Positions 1,789 to 19,866 of a stretch of 19,866 nucleotides of DNA are shown here, piece by piece. The stretch comes from Candidatus Ratteibacteria bacterium (GTDB lineage: Bacteria; Ratteibacteria; UBA8468; B48-G9; DTJG01). The notes below the pieces were generated by a model. That model was not told the origin of the DNA. It saw only the letters and a list, made by a program, of their open reading frames with translations, and searched no databases. The DNA lies in the NCBI GenBank assembly GCA_049971295.1, contig JBMFLH010000032.1:1-19866 (forward strand), read 5' to 3'. Made by a program: the position numbers and the translations under genes. The stretch's first letter is position 1. Each line of letters opens with the position of its first letter.

Positions 1789-2423
1789 AGGTCAAAATTT
1801 GCGGGATTACTCAAAAGAAAGATGCAGAGCAGTGTGATGCTCTTGGGGTTGATTATCTTGGTTTTAATTTTTACAGATTGAGTAAAAGGTACATACTTCC
1901 TGAAAAGGCAAGAGATATCATTTCTATCTTAAAAAGAGCAAAACCCATAGGTATATTTGTGGAACAGGACTTAGATTATATAAAAATGATTGTTGATATA
2001 TGCCATTTATACGGAATTCAAATACATGGAACCGAGAGACCAGAATTCTGCTACAGGGTAAGGAAATTGTTTCCAGACCAGATCATTATACAGGTTTTCA
2101 GAATTAAGGAAACAGTTCCTGCGAACTTGAGAGATTTTGACACTGACTACTATCTTTTTGATTCTTTTGATTCTGCAAGTCCTGGTGGCACTGGAAAACC
2201 ATTTAACTGGACAGTGCTACAAAAGTTGCAACCTGTTGCACAAAAATCTTTCATTGCAGGTGGAATAAACCCGGAAAATGTGGGAAGACTTATTGCCAGA
2301 ATAAACGCATATGGAATTGATATCGCATCAGGTGTGGAGAAAGCGCCAGGTATTAAGGATATTGAAAAGGTGAAACAGTTGCTGGTGAAAACCAGGGGGT
2401 ATGTGAATGACAAAATTGCCTGA
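1785..2423 (+). CDS. trpF: N-(5'-phosphoribosyl)anthranilate isomerase
   Basis: Motifs [37 protein letters not shown] and [12 protein letters not shown] overlap with trpB2. Confidence 0.95.
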
Positions 2424-3597
2424 TAAAAAAGGAAGGTTTGGTATTTATGGTGGAAAGTTTGCTCCTGAGACATTGATGGCTCCAATTGCAGAACTTGAGC
2501 ATGCATATTTTACCACTGGTACGAGCAGGCAATTTCATAAAGAGCTTGATTACTACCTGAGAAATTATGCAGGAAGACCCACTTCCCTTTATTATGCTGA
2601 AAATTTTTCAAAGGAGATTGGTTGTAAGGTTTATTTGAAGAGAGAAGACCTTGCATTTACAGGCGCTCACAAAATTAACAATACCATTGCTCAGGTTCTC
2701 CTTGCAAGGAAAATGGGGAAAACGCGTGTGATTGCTGAGACAGGAGCAGGGCAGCATGGTGTAGCAACAGCAACAGCGGCAGCGCTTTTCAAACTTGAAT
2801 GCGAAATATACATGGGAGAAGTTGATATGAAGAGACAGGCCCTCAATGTTTACAGGATGCGACTTCTGGGTGCAAGGGTCAATTGCGTAAGTTCAGGTAG
2901 CCGTACGCTTAAAGATGCAATCAATGAGGCATTGAGGGACTGGATATCAAATTTCAAAACAACTCATTATGTCATCGGCAGTGTTGTGGGTTTTCACCCG
3001 TTTCCAGTAATGGTCAGGGATTTTCAATCAGTAATTGGAAAAGAGACACGGCGTCAGATCCTGAAAATAGAGAAGCGACTTCCAGATTATCTGGTTGCGT
3101 GTGTTGGTGGAGGCAGCAATAGTATAGGCCTTTTTCATCCATTCTACGAAGATAAAAATGTAAAATTTATTGGCGTAGAAGCTGCGGGAAAAGGACTTGA
3201 TACAGATTATCATTCTGCGACGCTGTGCAGGGGAACCCCAGGAATATTGCATGGCAGTTTTAGTTATGTTCTTCAGAACAAAGATGGTCAAATTCATCCA
3301 ACCCATTCTATTTCTGCAGGGCTTGATTATCCAGGAACAGGGCCAGAGCATAGTTTTTACAAGGATACAGGAAGGGCAGAATATTGTGCTGTGACTGACC
3401 ACGAGGTTCTTAAAGCATTTCACGTTCTGAGTGAAAAAGAGGGTATTATACCTGCTCTTGAATCAGCTCATGCCATTGCGTATTTAGTGGAAAATAAAAA
3501 AAGATTTAAGCCAGACGATATTGTGGTTGTATGTTTGTCTGGAAGGGGAGATAAGGATGTCAATGAAGTTGCAAGAATTGAAGGAGTTCAACTGTGA
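2407..3597 (+). CDS. trpB: Tryptophan synthase beta chain (type 1)
   Basis: Motifs [51 protein letters not shown] and LSGRGDKD. Confidence 0.97.
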
Positions 3598-4380: not shown

Positions 4381-4410
4381 TTGACCTGAGGATACATTTA
4401 TTTGTATAAT
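4381..4410 (+). promoter_or_regulatory. Putative sigma70-type promoter driving a leaderless transcript
   Basis: TTGACC (4381-4386), 18-bp spacer, TATAAT (4405-4410), then 6 nt to the ATG at 4417. No Shine-Dalgarno is present. Confidence 0.65.
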
Positions 4411-4416
4411 AACAAA

Positions 4417-5169
4417 ATGGCAAAAAAGAACAAAAAATCAGGTAAAAAGTCGTGGAAAAAATTCATCATGTTGTCTGTACTGCTAATTCTTGCTGGCGGT
4501 GCATATATTGGTTATAACAGGTATCAGGCATACCAGAAGCGACTTGCCGAGCAGAAAGCAAAAGAAGAAGAATTGAGAAAACAGCAGCTTGCTGAGGAGC
4601 AAAAACGTAAAGAACTTGAACAGGCCAAACAGAAATTTGAAGAACTTCTATCACAGATGAGACAGGCTCTGGCAAAGAAGAATTATGCCCTTGTCAGACA
4701 ACTTGGTGAAAAAGCCAGGGATCTTGCGCTTGCATATAAGTTTCCCACTGATGAAATTGAAAAAATTTTGAGAGAAATGAATCTTGCCATAGCCATGGCA
4801 GGACTTGCGCGACTTGAAAAAATAAAGGACCCATACGCCCATCTTTATGTCAGGAACGAATTGAAGAAGATTCCTCGATATCCTGAAATTGCAAAAAGAT
4901 GGGATAAACTATGGAAAAAAAGTTTTCAGGATGAATACCTGGTATTGCTGGATCTTGCTGAAATTACTTCAGGTAAAGTAAATAGTGGTGATAGTCCTGA
5001 AGGCAATTACTTATTGTCGAAGACATATCTAAAAAAAGCAAAGGCAATTGTTGCCTCGGGCAGGGCAATTTCGGATAAAGAACGTGAAAATGCGTTGCTA
5101 CAAAAGCAGAGTGATGGATATTTTTCTTCCATTGGAAGAAGTTTTCAACCTGCCGGCCTTTACCGCTGA
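4417..5169 (+). CDS. Hypothetical single-pass membrane protein with a coiled-coil/helical soluble domain
   Basis: Lys-rich N-terminus (MAKKNKKSGKKSWKK), one hydrophobic helix (FIMLSVLLILAGGAYIGY), then a Q/E/K-rich coiled coil. I prefer ATG 4417 over the track's TTG 4402, which lies within the predicted promoter, immediately before its -10 hexamer. Confidence 0.8.
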   Translation: MAKKNKKSGKKSWKKFIMLSVLLILAGGAYIGYNRYQAYQKRLAEQKAKEEELRKQQLAEEQKRKELEQAKQKFEELLSQMRQALAKKNYALVRQLGEKARDLALAYKFPTDEIEKILREMNLAIAMAGLARLEKIKDPYAHLYVRNELKKIPRYPEIAKRWDKLWKKSFQDEYLVLLDLAEITSGKVNSGDSPEGNYLLSKTYLKKAKAIVASGRAISDKERENALLQKQSDGYFSSIGRSFQPAGLYR

Positions 5170-8876: not shown

Positions 8877-10369
8877 TTCCTGATTTTAGCAGGGATGATA
8901 TTTCTGTTGTCAGCCACTATCTGGGGAAAATTTTTATTGCTTTTGCTATTGCTCAGCTTTTTCCTGTGTTTGTTGGTCTGGTCTGTCGTGAGTTCAATCC
9001 GGTAATAGATTTTTTCATCTCAATCATTACCTGTCTTGCTTTTGGTTCTATTCTTCTTTATTTTTCACCGTCTCCGCAGGAAATAACCTGGCGGCAGGGA
9101 ATGACGATTGTGGCGTCCAGCTGGTTTCTGGCAATGTGTTTTTCTGCTCTTCCTCTCTATCTGAGCGGTCATTACGAGTGTTTTCTTGATGCATGTTTTG
9201 AGTCAATGAGCGCCTATGCCACCACAGGACTTGTTCTGGTACAGGACCTCGACCACATGTCGCATGCTCACAATATCTGGAGACATTTAATGTGTTTTAT
9301 TGGTGGACAGGGGATTATTCTTGTTGCACTCATTTTTTTCTTCAGGGGCGGTGATGCGCTGAGAATCTACATTGGAGAGGCAAGGGACGATAAAATTCTT
9401 CCCAACAGTATCACCACAGCAAAGTTTATCTGGATGGTAAGTTTTACCTATCTGATTATTTGTTCAAGTTTGCTTGCAATTATTCTTATGTTCCACGGCG
9501 TTCCTTTTTCCAGAGCCATCTTTCATGGGGTGTGTATTTTTATGGCAGGATGGGATACTGCGGGCTTTGCTCCGCAATCGCTTAACATTCTTTATTATCA
9601 CAGCCCGGTTTTTGAACTTGTGACAATTATTATCATTCTTCTTGGAGCAACAAGTTTTGGCGTTCATTACGCTGTATGGACAGGAAAATTTAAAGAATTG
9701 AGGGAGAATTTTGAAGTCAAAATACTGATGTTTACGATTTTCTTTACATATCTGATTGTTCTTGTTGGCTTTACAGGATACACATCCCAGTTTGTTGATT
9801 CATTTTCTTTTTTCAGACATACATTCTATCAACTCATTTCTGGTCACACCGGTGTTGGATATGCTAATATTTACTCTTCAGACCTTGCTCGGTGGCCAGA
9901 ACTTGCTCTTTTTGGAATCATCGTTGCAATGGGTATCGGCGGTTGCATGAATTCTACTGCTGGTGGAATAAAGGTTTTAAGAATAGGGCTATTTTATAAG
10001 TCCGTGAAAAGAGAAATTCGTCGGCTTGCCTATCCTGAAAGCTCCTACATAAAAGAATTTTTTCATCATCAGAGAGAAATTTCTGTGGATGATACGATGG
10101 TGAAAACCGCAATGATTATTACGATGTGTTATATTTTGCTTTATCTTTCCGGAGCGATTATCGCAAGCTTTTTTGGATACGGTTTTATCCATGGCCTTTT
10201 TGAATCTGTGTCTGCTGCTGCAAATGTCGGACTTTCTGTAGGAATTACAAGTCCATCGATGCCAGTACCTCTGAAGATTTGGTATATCTTCGAGATGTGG
10301 GCTGGAAGACTTGAGTTTTTTGCAATATTTATTCTGATAAGATTTCTCGTAAAAAGTGTGAAAAGATGA
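8873..10369 (+). CDS. trkH: TrkH-family potassium uptake membrane subunit
   Basis: 498-aa polytopic protein. It has four pore-loop motifs (FESMSAYATTG, GWDTAGF, SGHTGVGY, FESVSAAANVG), the gate loop GGCMNSTAGGIKVLR and C-terminal MWAGRLE. Confidence 0.93.
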   Translation: MIPDFSRDDISVVSHYLGKIFIAFAIAQLFPVFVGLVCREFNPVIDFFISIITCLAFGSILLYFSPSPQEITWRQGMTIVASSWFLAMCFSALPLYLSGHYECFLDACFESMSAYATTGLVLVQDLDHMSHAHNIWRHLMCFIGGQGIILVALIFFFRGGDALRIYIGEARDDKILPNSITTAKFIWMVSFTYLIICSSLLAIILMFHGVPFSRAIFHGVCIFMAGWDTAGFAPQSLNILYYHSPVFELVTIIIILLGATSFGVHYAVWTGKFKELRENFEVKILMFTIFFTYLIVLVGFTGYTSQFVDSFSFFRHTFYQLISGHTGVGYANIYSSDLARWPELALFGIIVAMGIGGCMNSTAGGIKVLRIGLFYKSVKREIRRLAYPESSYIKEFFHHQREISVDDTMVKTAMIITMCYILLYLSGAIIASFFGYGFIHGLFESVSAAANVGLSVGITSPSMPVPLKIWYIFEMWAGRLEFFAIFILIRFLVKSVKR

Positions 10370-10854
10370 AACCCGCGACTATTGTTTTTGTGATTGTGTT
10401 GATTATGACTGCTTTTTGCCGTGGCCAGAGTATCCCGGCGTTGGTAAACAATCCAGATTTGTTTGATGGAAAAATTGTGAGTGTTGATGGTGAACTTGTG
10501 GGAGATATCATCGAGGGCAAAGGTGGTTTCTGGGTTAATGTGCTTGAGGCAGATGTTGCCATCGGTGTTTGGTGCCCATTGGCTGCAAGAGGAAAAATTA
10601 AATTTCTTGGTAGATATGATGTTGAAGGAGACATCGTCAGGGTTGAAGGCGTGTTTCATAAAAGATGCGTGGAACACACAGGGGATATGGATATCCACGC
10701 TGGTTCAATTGAAGTTTTGAAACAGGGCAGGATAAAGGAGGAGGAAATACCGATAGAAAAAGTTATTTTTGCGTTTTCTCTTGGAATTGTAAGTCTTGCA
10801 GCAATAGGTCTTCTCCACATATTGACCCGCAGAGAATCCCTTCACGGTGATTGA
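10366..10854 (+). CDS. Hypothetical exported/membrane protein with an OB-fold-like domain and C-terminal TM helix
   Basis: N-terminal signal-like segment. The beta-rich core (FDGKIVSVDGELVGD...GDIVRVEGVF...DIHAGSIEVL) resembles an OB fold. C-terminal hydrophobic helix. ATGA overlap with trkH. Confidence 0.75.
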   Translation: MKPATIVFVIVLIMTAFCRGQSIPALVNNPDLFDGKIVSVDGELVGDIIEGKGGFWVNVLEADVAIGVWCPLAARGKIKFLGRYDVEGDIVRVEGVFHKRCVEHTGDMDIHAGSIEVLKQGRIKEEEIPIEKVIFAFSLGIVSLAAIGLLHILTRRESLHGD

Positions 10855-15636: not shown

Positions 15637-15685
15637 TTGTAAAACACAGCTTTTATAGTATACTTCTATCAGAAATGAAATCCAA
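15637..15685. promoter_or_regulatory. Putative overlapping divergent promoters sharing the palindrome AGTATACT
   Basis: Plus strand: TTGTAA (15637-15642), 16 bp, TATACT (15659-15664). Minus strand: TTGGAT (15685-15680), 17 bp, TATACT (15662-15657). Confidence 0.5.
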
Positions 15686-16259
15686 ATTTTGCTGGACGAA
15701 AAAGGGTGCCATTTTACTGTTTTCTGTAAATCTGACACTGCCTGCTTTTTTTGGAAACACTGCAGTTTCTCTATGCAGACAGTCAATTGAAAAATACCTT
15801 ACATCTGGCGAAACAATCGAGGGGAAAAATTTGCCTGATGTTTTTGGTGAAAAAATTCCAGTGTTTATTTCATTTAAAAAAGGAAATCAGACAAGGGGTT
15901 GTGCCGGCACTTTTTTATCAGAGAATACTTTTGCAGAAAATCTCATCTATTTTTCCATTATCGCGGCATCGCATGACTGCAGGTACAGACCAATCGACCG
16001 GCACGAATTGAAAGACATCAGAATACAGATTACAATTCCACAGCAACCAGTCGAAATACCATCCATAGAATTTTATAATCCAGAAACAGAAGGTTTAATT
16101 GTAAAAAAACAGGATAAAGTAGGTGTAGTGTTGCCAAGAGAGGCAAAAACTTCTGAATATGCCTTAAAGATAGGTTTGAGAAATGCAGGCATTGAAGATA
16201 AAGAAGGAATAACGTTATTTAAGTTCAAAGCACAAATTTTTATGGAGGGGGAAAAATGA
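15675..16259 (+). CDS. AMMECR1-domain protein (AmmeMemoRadiSam protein A-like) with a signal-peptide-like N-terminus
   Basis: PVFISFKK..TRGCAGTF corresponds to GxFVTL..LRGCIG, and AASHDCRYRPIDRHEL to AAxxDPRFxP..EL. Also EGLIV..GVVLP. The N-terminus is basic then hydrophobic. Confidence 0.85.
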   Translation: MKSKFCWTKKGAILLFSVNLTLPAFFGNTAVSLCRQSIEKYLTSGETIEGKNLPDVFGEKIPVFISFKKGNQTRGCAGTFLSENTFAENLIYFSIIAASHDCRYRPIDRHELKDIRIQITIPQQPVEIPSIEFYNPETEGLIVKKQDKVGVVLPREAKTSEYALKIGLRNAGIEDKEGITLFKFKAQIFMEGEK

Positions 16260-19200
16260 AAAAAGTTATTTATCCATTGATTTTGATTTTTGCTTCTGTG
16301 TGTTTCTGCGATACGATTACCGGTATCGTAAAGACGACAGATAATAAACCGGTTATTGGCGCTGAAGTACGGGTTTTGAAAATCAGACAGGTTGAAAGTA
16401 CACCAGTAAAGACCACGACATCCGACAGATTTGGAAAATTCAAAATTGAAGGTCTTGAAACCGGTTATTACAGAATTATAGCGTCAAAGAAAAACTTTTG
16501 TGACGCTAGTCCTGGAACCATTGAAGTAAACCAGCCAAAATTTGGAATTGTCAATTATGAAATTGTATTGAAAAAACCCGGTTCAATCAGTGGTTTTGTT
16601 TATGACCCGAATGGGCAGCCAGTTCAATCTGCAAAGGTAATTTCTACAAGAAATAACAGATCTGCAATTACGGATAACAAAGGATTTTACAAAATCGATG
16701 GGCTGGAACCAGGTAATTTCTATATATATGCGGAAGCAAAGGGCTTTGTAAGAAATTACAGGGCTAATGTGATTGTTGAAGAAAACAAGGAAACAGCAGG
16801 TATTAACTTTACACTTTCTTACTCAGGAGCAATTAAAGGAGTTGTCGTTGACGCGGAAACAGGGGAAGTGGTTGAAAATGCAATGGTTGAATGTTCCGGT
16901 AAACAGTATTATTCTACAAAAACAGATTTAAAAGGCAAATTTTTTGTTGACAATATGATGCCCGGAAGGTATGACGTTGGCGTTTACAGGCAGGGTTATG
17001 AATCCGCACGTGCAAGGGGCATTTCTGTAGTTGCAAAAGAAACTGTTGACATTGGAGAAATAAAAATAAAACTCAGGCCAAAATATTTTTATCTGAACAC
17101 AAATCAATGGCTTTTTACTCCTGGTGAAAATGTCAAACTTTATTTTAACGCATATAGAATTCCTTCTATTACAATTGACATTTACGAAATTGACCTTCTA
17201 AACGAGATAAACAAATCAAAAGGTTTTTCTCGCTCCACCAAGGAAATTTTAATGGCTGCCGATATATCAAACAAAGCGCCTGTATTAAGCAAAAAAATTG
17301 GTGTTTTTTACAAAACCCCATTAACGGAATTGTATGGCAGAACAATTTCAGCAGGGATGTTGTCTGAAGGTGCATATGTCTGTGTAATCACACCAGAAGG
17401 GATGCCACCACAGAGACAGGTCTTTTTTGTCACTGATGTGGGTTTTATTTCAAAAACATGCGACAACAAATCTGTTTTCACTGTTTTTTCAATTTCAAAA
17501 GGCATGACTCTTGCAGATATTTTTGTTTATGTTTTTGATAACTGGTGGAATCTGAAGCAAGAAGTCAAAACCGATAACAATGGACAGTTTGTATCTGATG
17601 AAAATCAGAAATTTCTGATAATGTCAGGAAAGTCTTTTGCAGTTTCAGACACTGTGACTAAAAGTTATTATGGGTCAGATGACAGGAGAATGATTTATGC
17701 CTACACTGATAGACCTGTGTATAGACCAGGCAATACCATTTATTTTAAGGCGATTCCAAGAATTGATTCCGGCGATAGGTATGAGATACCTCAAATTACA
17801 GGTTGTCAGGTAAAAATACTTGTTCCGGATGGAAGCGTAGTGTATGAAACTACCCTGATGCCACAAAAAAGCAGTTCAATTTCTGGTCAGTGGGCAATTC
17901 CAGATGAGCCACCTCTTGGCACTTACTCAATAGAATTCAAAACGCAGGGGCAAGACATTTTGAGCGGAAGATGCACTTTTAAGGTTCTTGAGTATAGAAA
18001 GCCCGAATTTTCCGTAGAAGTAAAGACAGACAAACTTAGATATCTTCCTGGAGAAAAGATTAAGGCAGTTATTTCAGCACAATACTACTTTGGAGCACCT
18101 GTAAAAAACGCAGACATTATGTGGGCGGTTTATTCAAAGCCAGCATACCATTATTATGATTTTGAAGAATATGAGGGAGAATATGAATATGAAGGATGGT
18201 GGCGCGGGTCTCTTGTTTGTTCGGGTAATTTGAAGACTGACGAAAAAGGAACAGCATTCATAGAAATTCCAACAAAAAAATCATACCAGCAGAAAGAAAC
18301 TTATTCAATTGAAGTGAAAATGACTGACCTGAGCAGGAGAGAAATCACATCAAGTACACAGGTGCTTACTGTTCCAGGAAATTTTGAAATCTCTGTTTCA
18401 ACTGATAAGTACGTGTATTCGCCTGGTGAAGAAATACCGTTAACTGTTTCAGCGCGATACTACCAAGATAATAGTCCGGTTATTGGGAAACAATTCACTG
18501 TTTCTGCAAGTCAGGAATCATACGACCAGAAGAAAAAAAGGTGGACCTTCAAGGAACTTCTGACCACAAATTTTGTTTCTAAAGGGGAAAAAACAACGAT
18601 AAAACTGAAGCCATCAACAACAGGTTACATAAGAATTGATATTCAGGGAATTGACCAGTTTCACAATATTATTTCTACAACGACATATATCTGGATAGCA
18701 GGCAGGGATTATTATTCATCCTGGTACGGAAGAAAGGAAATTGAGATCGTTGCAGACAGAAAAGAATATGAAATAGGAGATATTGCAAAGATTCTCATTA
18801 ACTCTTCCTATAAAGATTTGAATTTCTTGTTTTCAATTGAAGGGACAAGGTTGTTTGAAACCAGACTTATCAAAATGCAGGGAAATTCAGCCCTGATTGA
18901 GATACCAGTTAAGCAGGAATATGTTCCAAATATCTATATTTCAGTGTGTGGCGTAAAAAACAAAAACTTCATTTCTTCAAGCAAACCATTGAAAATTGCA
19001 TGTAAGGAAAAATTTCTCAATGTGGAAATTATGCCGGAAAAAAGCCAATTTCAGCCTCAGGAGAACGCCAGATATAGAATAAAAATCACAGATTCAGAAG
19101 GAAAAGGCGTTTCCGCTGAATTTTCAATGGGCGTGGTCGACGAGTCAATTTATGCAGTTTCCGGCGAACTTGTTCCAAAAATTCAGGACTTTTTCTATGG

Positions 19201-19866
19201 CGGCAAAGCAAACAGGGTTTCAACCTCTTATTCCTTCAGTCGCTGGTACTATGGTGGAGCAGGAAAGGATTTTGCTCAGGAGGAAATAAGAAAAAATTTT
19301 AAGGATACTGCCTTCTGGCAGCCTTATGTTTTCACAGATACAACTGGAATAGCGGATATTCAGTTTATTCTTCCTGACAATCTTACCACATGGAGAACAA
19401 CAGTTCGCGCCATTACTTTAGATACGAAAGTTGGTTCAGGGATTAATAAAGTAATTACCACGAAACCTTTGATTGCAAATTTGATTACGCCGAGATTTAT
19501 GGTTGAAGACGATAGAATGTTAATCTCAGGAGTCATTCATAACCACACAGGCAAAAATCAGAAAATTTTTGTTGAACTGAAAGCAGATGGACTTGAGATT
19601 CTTGACGAAAAAGAAAAAAACATTGAAATTGAAAATGGAAAATCAGCAAGGATTGATTGGAAAGTAAAGGTCAGTTCAGTGAAAAATGCACTTATTACCC
19701 TTTTTGCACAGTCATCCCATTATAAGGATGCTATGGAATTGACAATTCCTGTCTTTCCCTATGGCGCTGACGAAAGACGTGTTTTCACAGGTCAATGCGA
19801 GGATACCAGGATAGATACATTTTACATGCCCACAGGTACAATTCCAGCGTCAATTGATGCAAAATC
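16256..19866 (+). CDS. Bacterial alpha-2-macroglobulin family protein with three N-terminal carboxypeptidase-regulatory-like repeats; 3'-truncated by the window edge (about 1203 codons visible)
   Basis: Manual translation. GGAGGG SD and ATGA overlap, signal peptide MKKVIYPLILIFASVCFC. In-frame A2M motifs are YTDRPVYRPG (about 17702), FKVLEYRKPEF, AQYYFGAPV, GVVDESIYAV (about 19130), IRKNFKDTAFW (about 19286) and LPDNLTTWR. It is probably absent from the ORF track because it has no stop in the window. Confidence 0.93.
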   Translation, partial: MKKVIYPLILIFASVCFCDTITGIVKTTDNKPVIGAEVRVLKIRQVESTPVKTTTSDRFGKFKIEGLETGYYRIIASKKNFCDASPGTIEVNQPKFGIVNYEIVLKKPGSISGFVYDPNGQPVQSAKVISTRNNRSAITDNKGFYKIDGLEPGNFYIYAEAKGFVRNYRANVIVEENKETAGINFTLSYSGAIKGVVVDAETGEVVENAMVECSGKQYYSTKTDLKGKFFVDNMMPGRYDVGVYRQGYESARARGISVVAKETVDIGEIKIKLRPKYFYLNTNQWLFTPGENVKLYFNAYRIPSITIDIYEIDLLNEINKSKGFSRSTKEILMAADISNKAPVLSKKIGVFYKTPLTELYGRTISAGMLSEGAYVCVITPEGMPPQRQVFFVTDVGFISKTCDNKSVFTVFSISKGMTLADIFVYVFDNWWNLKQEVKTDNNGQFVSDENQKFLIMSGKSFAVSDTVTKSYYGSDDRRMIYAYTDRPVYRPGNTIYFKAIPRIDSGDRYEIPQITGCQVKILVPDGSVVYETTLMPQKSSSISGQWAIPDEPPLGTYSIEFKTQGQDILSGRCTFKVLEYRKPEFSVEVKTDKLRYLPGEKIKAVISAQYYFGAPVKNADIMWAVYSKPAYHYYDFEEYEGEYEYEGWWRGSLVCSGNLKTDEKGTAFIEIPTKKSYQQKETYSIEVKMTDLSRREITSSTQVLTVPGNFEISVSTDKYVYSPGEEIPLTVSARYYQDNSPVIGKQFTVSASQESYDQKKKRWTFKELLTTNFVSKGEKTTIKLKPSTTGYIRIDIQGIDQFHNIISTTTYIWIAGRDYYSSWYGRKEIEIVADRKEYEIGDIAKILINSSYKDLNFLFSIEGTRLFETRLIKMQGNSALIEIPVKQEYVPNIYISVCGVKNKNFISSSKPLKIACKEKFLNVEIMPEKSQFQPQENARYRIKITDSEGKGVSAEFSMGVVDESIYAVSGELVPKIQDFFYGGKANRVSTSYSFSRWYYGGAGKDFAQEEIRKNFKDTAFWQPYVFTDTTGIADIQFILPDNLTTWRTTVRAITLDTKVGSGINKVITTKPLIANLITPRFMVEDDRMLISGVIHNHTGKNQKIFVELKADGLEILDEKEKNIEIENGKSARIDWKVKVSSVKNALITLFAQSSHYKDAMELTIPVFPYGADERRVFTGQCEDTRIDTFYMPTGTIPASIDAK
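16310..17075 (+). repeat. Three tandem protein-level repeats of about 80-90 aa (carboxypeptidase regulatory-like beta-sandwich)
   Basis: The repeats read TITGIVKTTDNKPVIGAEV..TSDRFGKFKIEGLETGYY, SISGFVYDPNGQPVQSAKV..TDNKGFYKIDGLEPGNF and AIKGVVVDAETGEVVENAMV..TDLKGKFFVDNMMPGRY. Boundaries are approximate. Confidence 0.85.

Follow-up and report, generated by a model that had tools for sequence, protein, structure and literature searches.

AMMECR1, alpha-2-macroglobulin and VanW: an apparently undescribed third gene context for bacterial macroglobulins, as seen from a Candidatus Ratteibacteria contig

Introduction

What is the gene of an AMMECR1-domain protein doing immediately upstream of the gene of a bacterial alpha-2-macroglobulin (A2M), a protease trap? 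The question is raised by a 19,866-nucleotide stretch of Candidatus Ratteibacteria DNA (contig JBMFLH010000032.1 of assembly GCA_049971295.1; hereafter, the window), which makes up all of contig C32 in a genome of 92% completeness, and in which the two genes in question are the following:

15675..16259, + strand: stand-alone AMMECR1-domain protein of the LPxE[AG] branch, 194 amino acids (aa), as judged from Pfam PF01871, a fold match and trees
16256..19866, + strand: A2M residues 1-1203, the open reading frame (ORF) being cut by the contig end; Pfam MG2, A2M_BRD and A2M

AMMECR1, its human member included, is an uncharacterised enzyme found from archaea to eukaryotes, for which RNA modification with Memo and radical S-adenosylmethionine (SAM) partners has been predicted (PMC2034487). 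The bacterial A2Ms described so far belong to two systems: type I, co-encoded with penicillin-binding protein (PBP) 1C as a proposed trap-and-repair pair (PMC5764988, PMC4498604), and type II, in which MagD binds MagA, MagB and MagF 1:1 (PMC5764988). An earlier sequence-only reading of the window had suggested an exported AMMECR1 within an envelope module, and the analysis presented here finds that AMMECR1-A2M-VanW is genuinely a third genomic setting in which bacterial macroglobulins occur, apparently an undescribed one (no description of it was found in full-text literature searches, which did not cover subscription journals).

Results

The gene unit and its recurrence

The window A2M has a signal-like N-terminus without a lipobox, and thus no lipid anchor, followed by three CarboxypepD_reg repeats and then macroglobulin domains. 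Its remainder lies on contig C116 of the same genome (G000:C116, reversed), which carries A2M residues ~1213-1708 with the thioester motif CxEQ intact as YPYGCIEQ; C32 and C116 do not overlap and ~9 A2M residues are missing between them, the continuity being judged from same-genus loci, such as L035, that carry the A2M whole. Directly after the A2M on C116 comes a VanW gene (223 aa; PF04294 at 128 bits as the sole Pfam match, with no PG4 and no G5), whose residues GGGLCQ, RKPHS and GLDA would, as assigned by conservation rather than by alignment to Ldt4/Ldt5, provide the Cys/His/Asp triad of the VanW L,D-transpeptidase family (PMC11348318, PMC12729407). With VanW as the next gene, PBP1C is not co-encoded with the window A2M, and a Memo or radical-SAM gene 3' of the A2M is ruled out. 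The sequence-only reading had singled out the downstream genes as worth inspecting and missed VanW because that gene lies off C32; it was right that no Memo or AmmeMemoRadiSam radical-SAM gene adjoins the window AMMECR1, and the separate canonical AMMECR1 that it envisaged does exist as a Memo-AMMECR1 fusion, paired with a radical SAM on contig C104, away from the window operon, which makes the window AMMECR1 a paralogue with another role.

Within the source phylum (65 genomes, which are kin, so that the counts are not independent), an LPxE[AG]-type AMMECR1 paralogue is present in 20 genomes (E <=2e-34), the next-best ten AMMECR1 loci being canonical RGCIG/LPQVA proteins. All 20 paralogue-bearing genomes fall within the 27 that are A2M-positive and none within the 38 that are A2M-negative. 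The A2M is the next gene after AMMECR1 in 18 of the 19 fetched loci, the 19th contig stopping at the A2M ATG, and VanW follows the A2M wherever the contigs reach, six A2M ends on separate contigs included. CxEQ is present in all 14 full-length phylum A2M orthologues listed. Four stand-alone A2Ms (~2000 aa) of the phylum have neither AMMECR1 nor VanW as a neighbour, and two stand-alone A2Ms with CxEQ (L192, L193) lack an AMMECR1 neighbour. DUF1175, one of the downstream candidates of the sequence-only reading, was found in 0/65 source-phylum genomes and in 0/251 Armatimonadota genomes.

Across at least four phyla, genes of the LPxE[AG] branch are linked to those of A2M, VanW, SpoIID and a transpeptidase-only PBP. 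A pattern scan across genomes returned 22 AMMECR1 loci; in Bacillota-type loci, AMMECR1 is followed by an A2M::VanW fusion with both motifs intact in 14 of 16, one more shows the start of an A2M, and the contigs of both remaining loci end. Just upstream in most of these Bacillota-type loci (L058-L075) a divergent gene with LysM and BsuPI (proteinase-inhibitor) domains was seen, Pfam-checked in L067. The AMMECR1 search matched 123 of 251 Armatimonadota genomes, and in a sample of 20 of the top 30 loci (short contigs and those already in the set being skipped) an A2M lies downstream of 13/15 LPxE-type copies (of 12 as the next gene) versus 0/5 canonical copies. The Armatimonadota locus L062, from the pattern scan, reads transpeptidase-SpoIID-AMMECR1-A2M-VanW; most loci of this phylum hold AMMECR1 and A2M only, with no wall enzyme detected nearby. 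Eight Armatimonadota A2Ms (L062, L109, L112, L117, L118, L119, L122, L125) are without CxEQ, while the adjoining AMMECR1 keeps its GCxG Cys; these A2Ms also keep a conserved GG bait segment (the bait being shown for all but L119). As a separate observation, the canonical LPDLxG-type AMMECR1s of L108, L116, L121 and L126 sit in an apparent der(engA)-plsY-AMMECR1-maf run, as judged from N-termini, with no Memo among the neighbours inspected.

A longer form of the operon was found in the 93-genome phylum of G069, 18 genomes of which matched: the order A2M-VanW-membrane protein-transpeptidase-SpoIID-AMMECR1 is seen in 10 of the 14 fetched loci and partially in three more. The membrane protein between VanW and the transpeptidase is a ~345-aa multi-pass one with no Pfam match over cut-off (L226:5978-7012; homologues in L221-L234, L172, L173 and L181, and weakly in L129 and L131), and it has no match in the source genome. 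Among metagenome loci, a set that includes near-duplicates, 39/61 hold at least one partner (A2M 20, VanW 20, SpoIID 22, transpeptidase 13), as do 17/19 of those flanked by 3 kb or more on each side. Chance adjacency of AMMECR1 and A2M is ruled out by this recurrence within the phylum, in other phyla and in metagenomes, and the conserved adjacency that the sequence-only reading had supposed is thereby borne out. Tree distances of AMMECR1 and A2M correlate as well (Spearman 0.64, 41 pairs), but shared ancestry accounts for this and the correlation is given no weight.

The AMMECR1 protein

The AMMECR1 domain (PF01871) was matched at 108.9 bits (gathering cut-off 25) over residues 31-189 of the ORF, which scores 82 bits against a TIGR04335 cut-off of 99 and is under the TIGR00296 cut-off also. 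Three motifs are essential to what follows:

15894..15908, + strand: RGCAG motif (R74-G-C76-A-G) with the invariant Cys76; C76 and G78 are invariant in 41 operon-linked copies
15975..15986, + strand: DxR-aromatic motif DCRY (D101-C-R103-Y); in the 41 copies D101 is invariant and R103 is kept in at least 90%
16131..16151, + strand: LPREAKT, by sequence comparison the LPxE[AG] signature in place of the canonical LPQVA or LPDLEG

The RGC and DxR motifs, which the sequence-only reading had rightly recognised, have been proposed as the AMMECR1 active site (PMC2034487). Across the 41 A2M-linked copies, C76, G78, D101, G140, L153, P154 and E156 are invariant at a mean column identity of only 21%, which argues for retained catalysis; the alignment contains no conserved CxxC. 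The predicted model (mean predicted local distance difference test, pLDDT, of 85.9, with residues 1-18 below 50 and the first helix starting at 25) has archaeal structures as its top Foldseek matches (1zq7, 1vaj, 1wsc; template-modelling score 0.78 for PH0010/1vaj), so that the duplicated RAGNYA fold is present on the model along with the RGChG and DxR-aromatic motifs in the sequence.

Profile searches returned many stand-alone AMMECR1s with LPxE[AG] replacing LPQVA or LPDLEG. In a 200-row FastTree, whose rows were picked by similarity to the query and a GCxG-type pattern, one split (support 0.805) groups 100 LPxE[AG] rows, none of them Memo-fused, and the same split obtained a Shimodaira-Hasegawa-like approximate likelihood-ratio (SH-aLRT) support of 95 in a 101-row subsample (quick IQ-TREE, unrooted); four rows missed by an earlier motif search keep the Cys on inspection. 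An 11-residue hydrophobic N-terminal window of at least 2.0 is found in 85 of the 100 branch members versus 2 of the 48 stand-alone rows outside, the 52 fusions being left out of the comparison. The stand-alone LPxE[AG] AMMECR1s form a distinct branch, the export of which we infer from these hydrophobic N-termini, in line with the signal-bearing, A2M-linked clade that the sequence-only reading had envisaged. Related AMMECR1 clusters are, according to an atlas search, commonest in Melainabacteria and Thermodesulfobacteriota.

Export

15675..15740, + strand: likely Sec signal peptide or signal anchor, residues 1 to ~22, cleavage site uncertain; n- and h-region, low pLDDT and orthologue N-termini

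The N-terminus, MKSKFCWTKKG-AILLFSVNLTL, is basic and then hydrophobic, as had been noticed earlier, with an 11-residue Kyte-Doolittle maximum of 2.14; its h-region is weak and atypical, being short and containing Asn, Thr and Pro. The ATG at 15675 is the sole in-frame ATG/GTG/TTG from the upstream stop to 40 codons before the catalytic motif, which leaves no usable downstream start, so that a true start further downstream is ruled out; the start position is conserved across the genus, and the N-terminal extension is kept in 20/20 loci examined. By the hydrophobicity heuristic, divergent orthologues have classic signal-like N-termini, and in Bacillota copies a hydrophobic stretch of 17 residues is joined to a linker of 32-119 residues. 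The claim of an exported AMMECR1 therefore fares well for the subfamily and is marginal for the window copy's own signal. AMMECR1, A2M and VanW are all probably Sec-exported.

The accompanying statement that prokaryotic AMMECR1s are normally cytoplasmic was overstated, since the genome's own Memo-AMMECR1 fusion starts signal-like: the canonical radical SAM (~360 aa) and the Memo-AMMECR1 fusion (~495 aa; G000:C104:585-3127) both have signal-like hydrophobic N-termini, and this pair may be exported too.

The predicted complex

Prediction of AMMECR1 together with A2M residues 276-1100 scored 0.39 (runs 0.39, 0.53 and 0.07) against 0.00 for the best control, contacts agreeing in at least 65% and the partner pLDDT being at least 78. 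In the calibration, 116 of 157 solved pairs and 2 of 215 mismatched pairs attained the pass mark, and the passes at <=0.60 were 18 of the solved pairs and both of the mismatched ones. The prediction weakly supports binding, and with it the suggestion of the sequence-only reading that AMMECR1 is a partner of the protease trap.

Upstream sequence, coupling and other window genes

15654..15664, + strand: conserved TATAGTATACT with predicted -10 box TATACT (15659-15664), 10 nucleotides 5' of the ATG
16244..16259, + strand: Shine-Dalgarno GGAGG (16244-16248, inside AMMECR1) and ATGA stop/start overlap (16256-16259)
19247..19258, + strand: YYGG in the short conserved bait segment of the A2M, with G1001 invariant in 41 module A2Ms

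The TATAGTATACT box stands just 5' of the AMMECR1 start in the window and in 10 of the 12 closest fetched loci, and this conservation is the promoter evidence for the promoter-like site at 15637-15664, because the promoter scan gave 4 sites, barely more than the 3.2 expected by chance. The position suggests a near-leaderless AMMECR1 mRNA. The palindromic AGTATACT (15657-15664) reads TATACT in either direction and could be a -10 box common to AMMECR1 and the divergent nadE. The ATGA overlap with the A2M start, pointed out by the sequence-only reading, recurs in most orthologous loci fetched, and translational coupling of AMMECR1 and A2M is predicted. The bait is longer and variable in the four stand-alone A2Ms, and comparing the bait segment with the PDB gave no bacterial A2M match.

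Elsewhere in the window, two ORFs for putative membrane or exported proteins are without a Pfam match over cut-off (4402-5169, 255 aa, coiled, with an N-terminal anchor; 10366-10854, 162 aa, with a signal-like start and a C-terminal hydrophobic segment), and a single trp cluster contains two genes for tryptophan synthase beta-like proteins, 430-1788 and 2407-3597, presumably TrpB2-like and TrpB1-like.

Discussion

Relation to known systems

With the type I systems (E. coli yfhM/ECAM-pbpC, Salmonella Sa-A2M) the unit shares a CxEQ A2M, a predicted peptidoglycan cross-linking enzyme and the proposed trap-and-repair logic, but the partner here is a VanW-type L,D-transpeptidase rather than PBP1C, a probably exported AMMECR1 is added, and the A2M carries three carboxypeptidase-regulatory repeats at its N-terminus and lacks a lipobox, whereas ECAM is a lipoprotein. 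Type II (P. aeruginosa magABCDEF, E. coli yfaA-yfaT-yfaS-yfaQ-yfaP) is likewise a multi-gene operon that encodes small exported partners, and the AMMECR1 module in its long form has six genes, one of them for a membrane protein; its SpoIID and transpeptidase resemble, we assume, YfaQ. Unlike type II, the window A2M retains CxEQ, DUF1175 (YfaT/MagC) is missing from all 65 + 251 genomes, and neither AMMECR1 nor VanW is part of the Mag system.

AmmeMemoRadiSam protein A (TIGR04335) and the archaeal PH0010, MM0484 and ST0229 share the fold and the RGChG and DxR-aromatic motifs (PMC2034487), yet the window AMMECR1, besides falling under the family cut-off, belongs to the separate LPxE[AG] branch (never Memo-fused in the 100 sampled members), carries a predicted N-terminal export signal and sits in a different operon. 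As for C. difficile Ldt4 and Ldt5, PF04294 with its conserved Cys, His and Asp is found in the window VanW also, but at ~223 aa, without PG4/G5, in a diderm, and coupled or fused to an A2M; its L,D-transpeptidase activity is predicted, and a search for a solved VanW structure found none.

What AMMECR1 may do beside the trap

The recurrence of the gene unit across several phyla makes AMMECR1 a likely envelope partner of the A2M, and the persistence of the pair where no wall enzyme is nearby favours a direct partnership. On balance, we regard AMMECR1 as the first gene of an AMMECR1-A2M-VanW unit whose product would be an exported accessory subunit of the A2M in the envelope, and binding to the A2M is rather to be expected than not. 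In the simplest reading, the operon would encode a trap (A2M), a cross-linker (VanW) and an accessory subunit (AMMECR1) docking on the macroglobulin ring, which together could form a complex in the periplasm for trapping proteases and repairing the cell wall. VanW points to peptidoglycan, as do SpoIID, the transpeptidase-only PBP and the membrane protein in other phyla, and the envelope module of the sequence-only reading gains from this linkage. Cys76, with Asp101, Arg103 and Glu156, would be an acyl-carrying nucleophile that does not act on the A2M thioester; its most plausible role, held tentatively, is acyl transfer with a peptide or a peptidoglycan stem as the substrate, such substrates being favoured because of the neighbour genes. 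The boldest form, a widespread third macroglobulin class (A2M, VanW, transpeptidase-only PBP, SpoIID, a membrane protein and AMMECR1) in which AMMECR1 is an A2M-docked Cys acyl-transferase that acts on the conserved bait or on peptidoglycan stems and thereby activates the trap or ties it to the wall, is an unlikely proposal.

Several observations weigh against this picture. The signal of the window copy is marginal (17-residue hydrophobicity 1.68, by the same heuristic), and the AMMECR1 alignment has no conserved His for a classic Cys-His dyad. Some branch members stand apart from any A2M: in five loci (L114, L158, L159, L175, L176) transpeptidase-SpoIID-AMMECR1 occurs without an A2M in the stretch that was fetched, at L110, L069 and L072 no module neighbour was detected, and the two metagenome exceptions (L140:5117-5848, L149:7800-8546) lie between trpB and a type III pantothenate kinase. 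Weak evidence of the same kind is that no AMMECR1 fusion to a module partner was found among 16 longer matches (8000 candidates scored), which are 15 Memo/LigB-type fusions and one unrelated weak match. The kinship of the phylum genomes and the near-duplicate metagenome loci lessen the weight of the counts, and VanW activity has been demonstrated in C. difficile and in 3 of the 7 non-C. difficile homologues tested (PMC11348318, in the part drawn on here). The L140/L149 subgroup is itself of interest, consisting of signal-bearing LPGEALT AMMECR1s away from any A2M.

The five transpeptidase-SpoIID-AMMECR1 loci without a nearby A2M speak for an alternative that we consider improbable, namely that AMMECR1 is a stand-alone periplasmic peptidoglycan enzyme (with an amidase- or peptidase-like Cys nucleophile) that does not bind the A2M, serves SpoIID, the transpeptidase and VanW, and takes the DUF1175/YfaT slot of the mag/yfa operons. 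SpoIID is the most frequent metagenome neighbour, and DUF1175, which is NlpC/P60-like, is missing from both phyla surveyed that use the branch AMMECR1; this absence is lineage-wide, however, and hence offers no paired test, most Armatimonadota loci have only AMMECR1 and A2M, and the source genome has no transpeptidase-only gene (its two transpeptidase matches are on C89 and C49).

More doubtful still is that AMMECR1 cuts the conserved YxGG bait, after which VanW would link the newly exposed Gly terminus to peptidoglycan and so fasten the trap to the wall. The short bait with its invariant G1001, the missing lipid anchor and the A2M::VanW fusions would suit this, but the bait GG is kept also where VanW is absent, self-cleavage would spend the thioester, and a Gly-Gly bait motif is possibly general to bacterial A2Ms, which counts against the idea. 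Attachment of proteins to peptidoglycan is known from YkuD-type L,D-transpeptidases (PMC12729407), whereas a protein-anchoring activity of VanW is not reported in the parts of PMC11348318 and PMC12729407 drawn on here.

The role that the sequence-only reading had itself put forward, maturation or protection of the A2M thioester or a periplasmic redox function, agrees with the invariant Cys and with CxEQ in most linked A2Ms, yet must be judged very unlikely, because AMMECR1 keeps its Cys beside the eight Armatimonadota A2Ms devoid of CxEQ; L192 and L193 have CxEQ and no AMMECR1 neighbour, and CxxC is not conserved. Finally, that the signal has decayed in the source genus, leaving AMMECR1 cytoplasmic or only membrane-associated and retained through gene linkage, is hardly credible: the short h-region interrupted by Asn and Pro and the internal starts chosen by gene callers in 4 close homologues (P0006, P0007, P0011, P0016) speak for it, but the single in-frame start at a genus-conserved position, the extension in all 20 loci and the intact catalytic residues speak against it.

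Significance

To the two bacterial A2M systems described so far, the AMMECR1-A2M-VanW unit adds a third architecture, in which VanW transpeptidases, known mostly from Gram-positives, adjoin a protease trap or are fused to it. The large, apparently exported AMMECR1 branch has dropped its Memo and radical-SAM partners but retains the catalytic Cys, and its genes accompany those of a macroglobulin and of cell-wall enzymes. Its small soluble proteins, with bait peptide and muropeptides as candidate substrates, lend themselves to an activity assay. If true, an A2M-docked acyl transfer would be the first biochemical reaction for the AMMECR1 family, and one independent of Memo and radical SAM.

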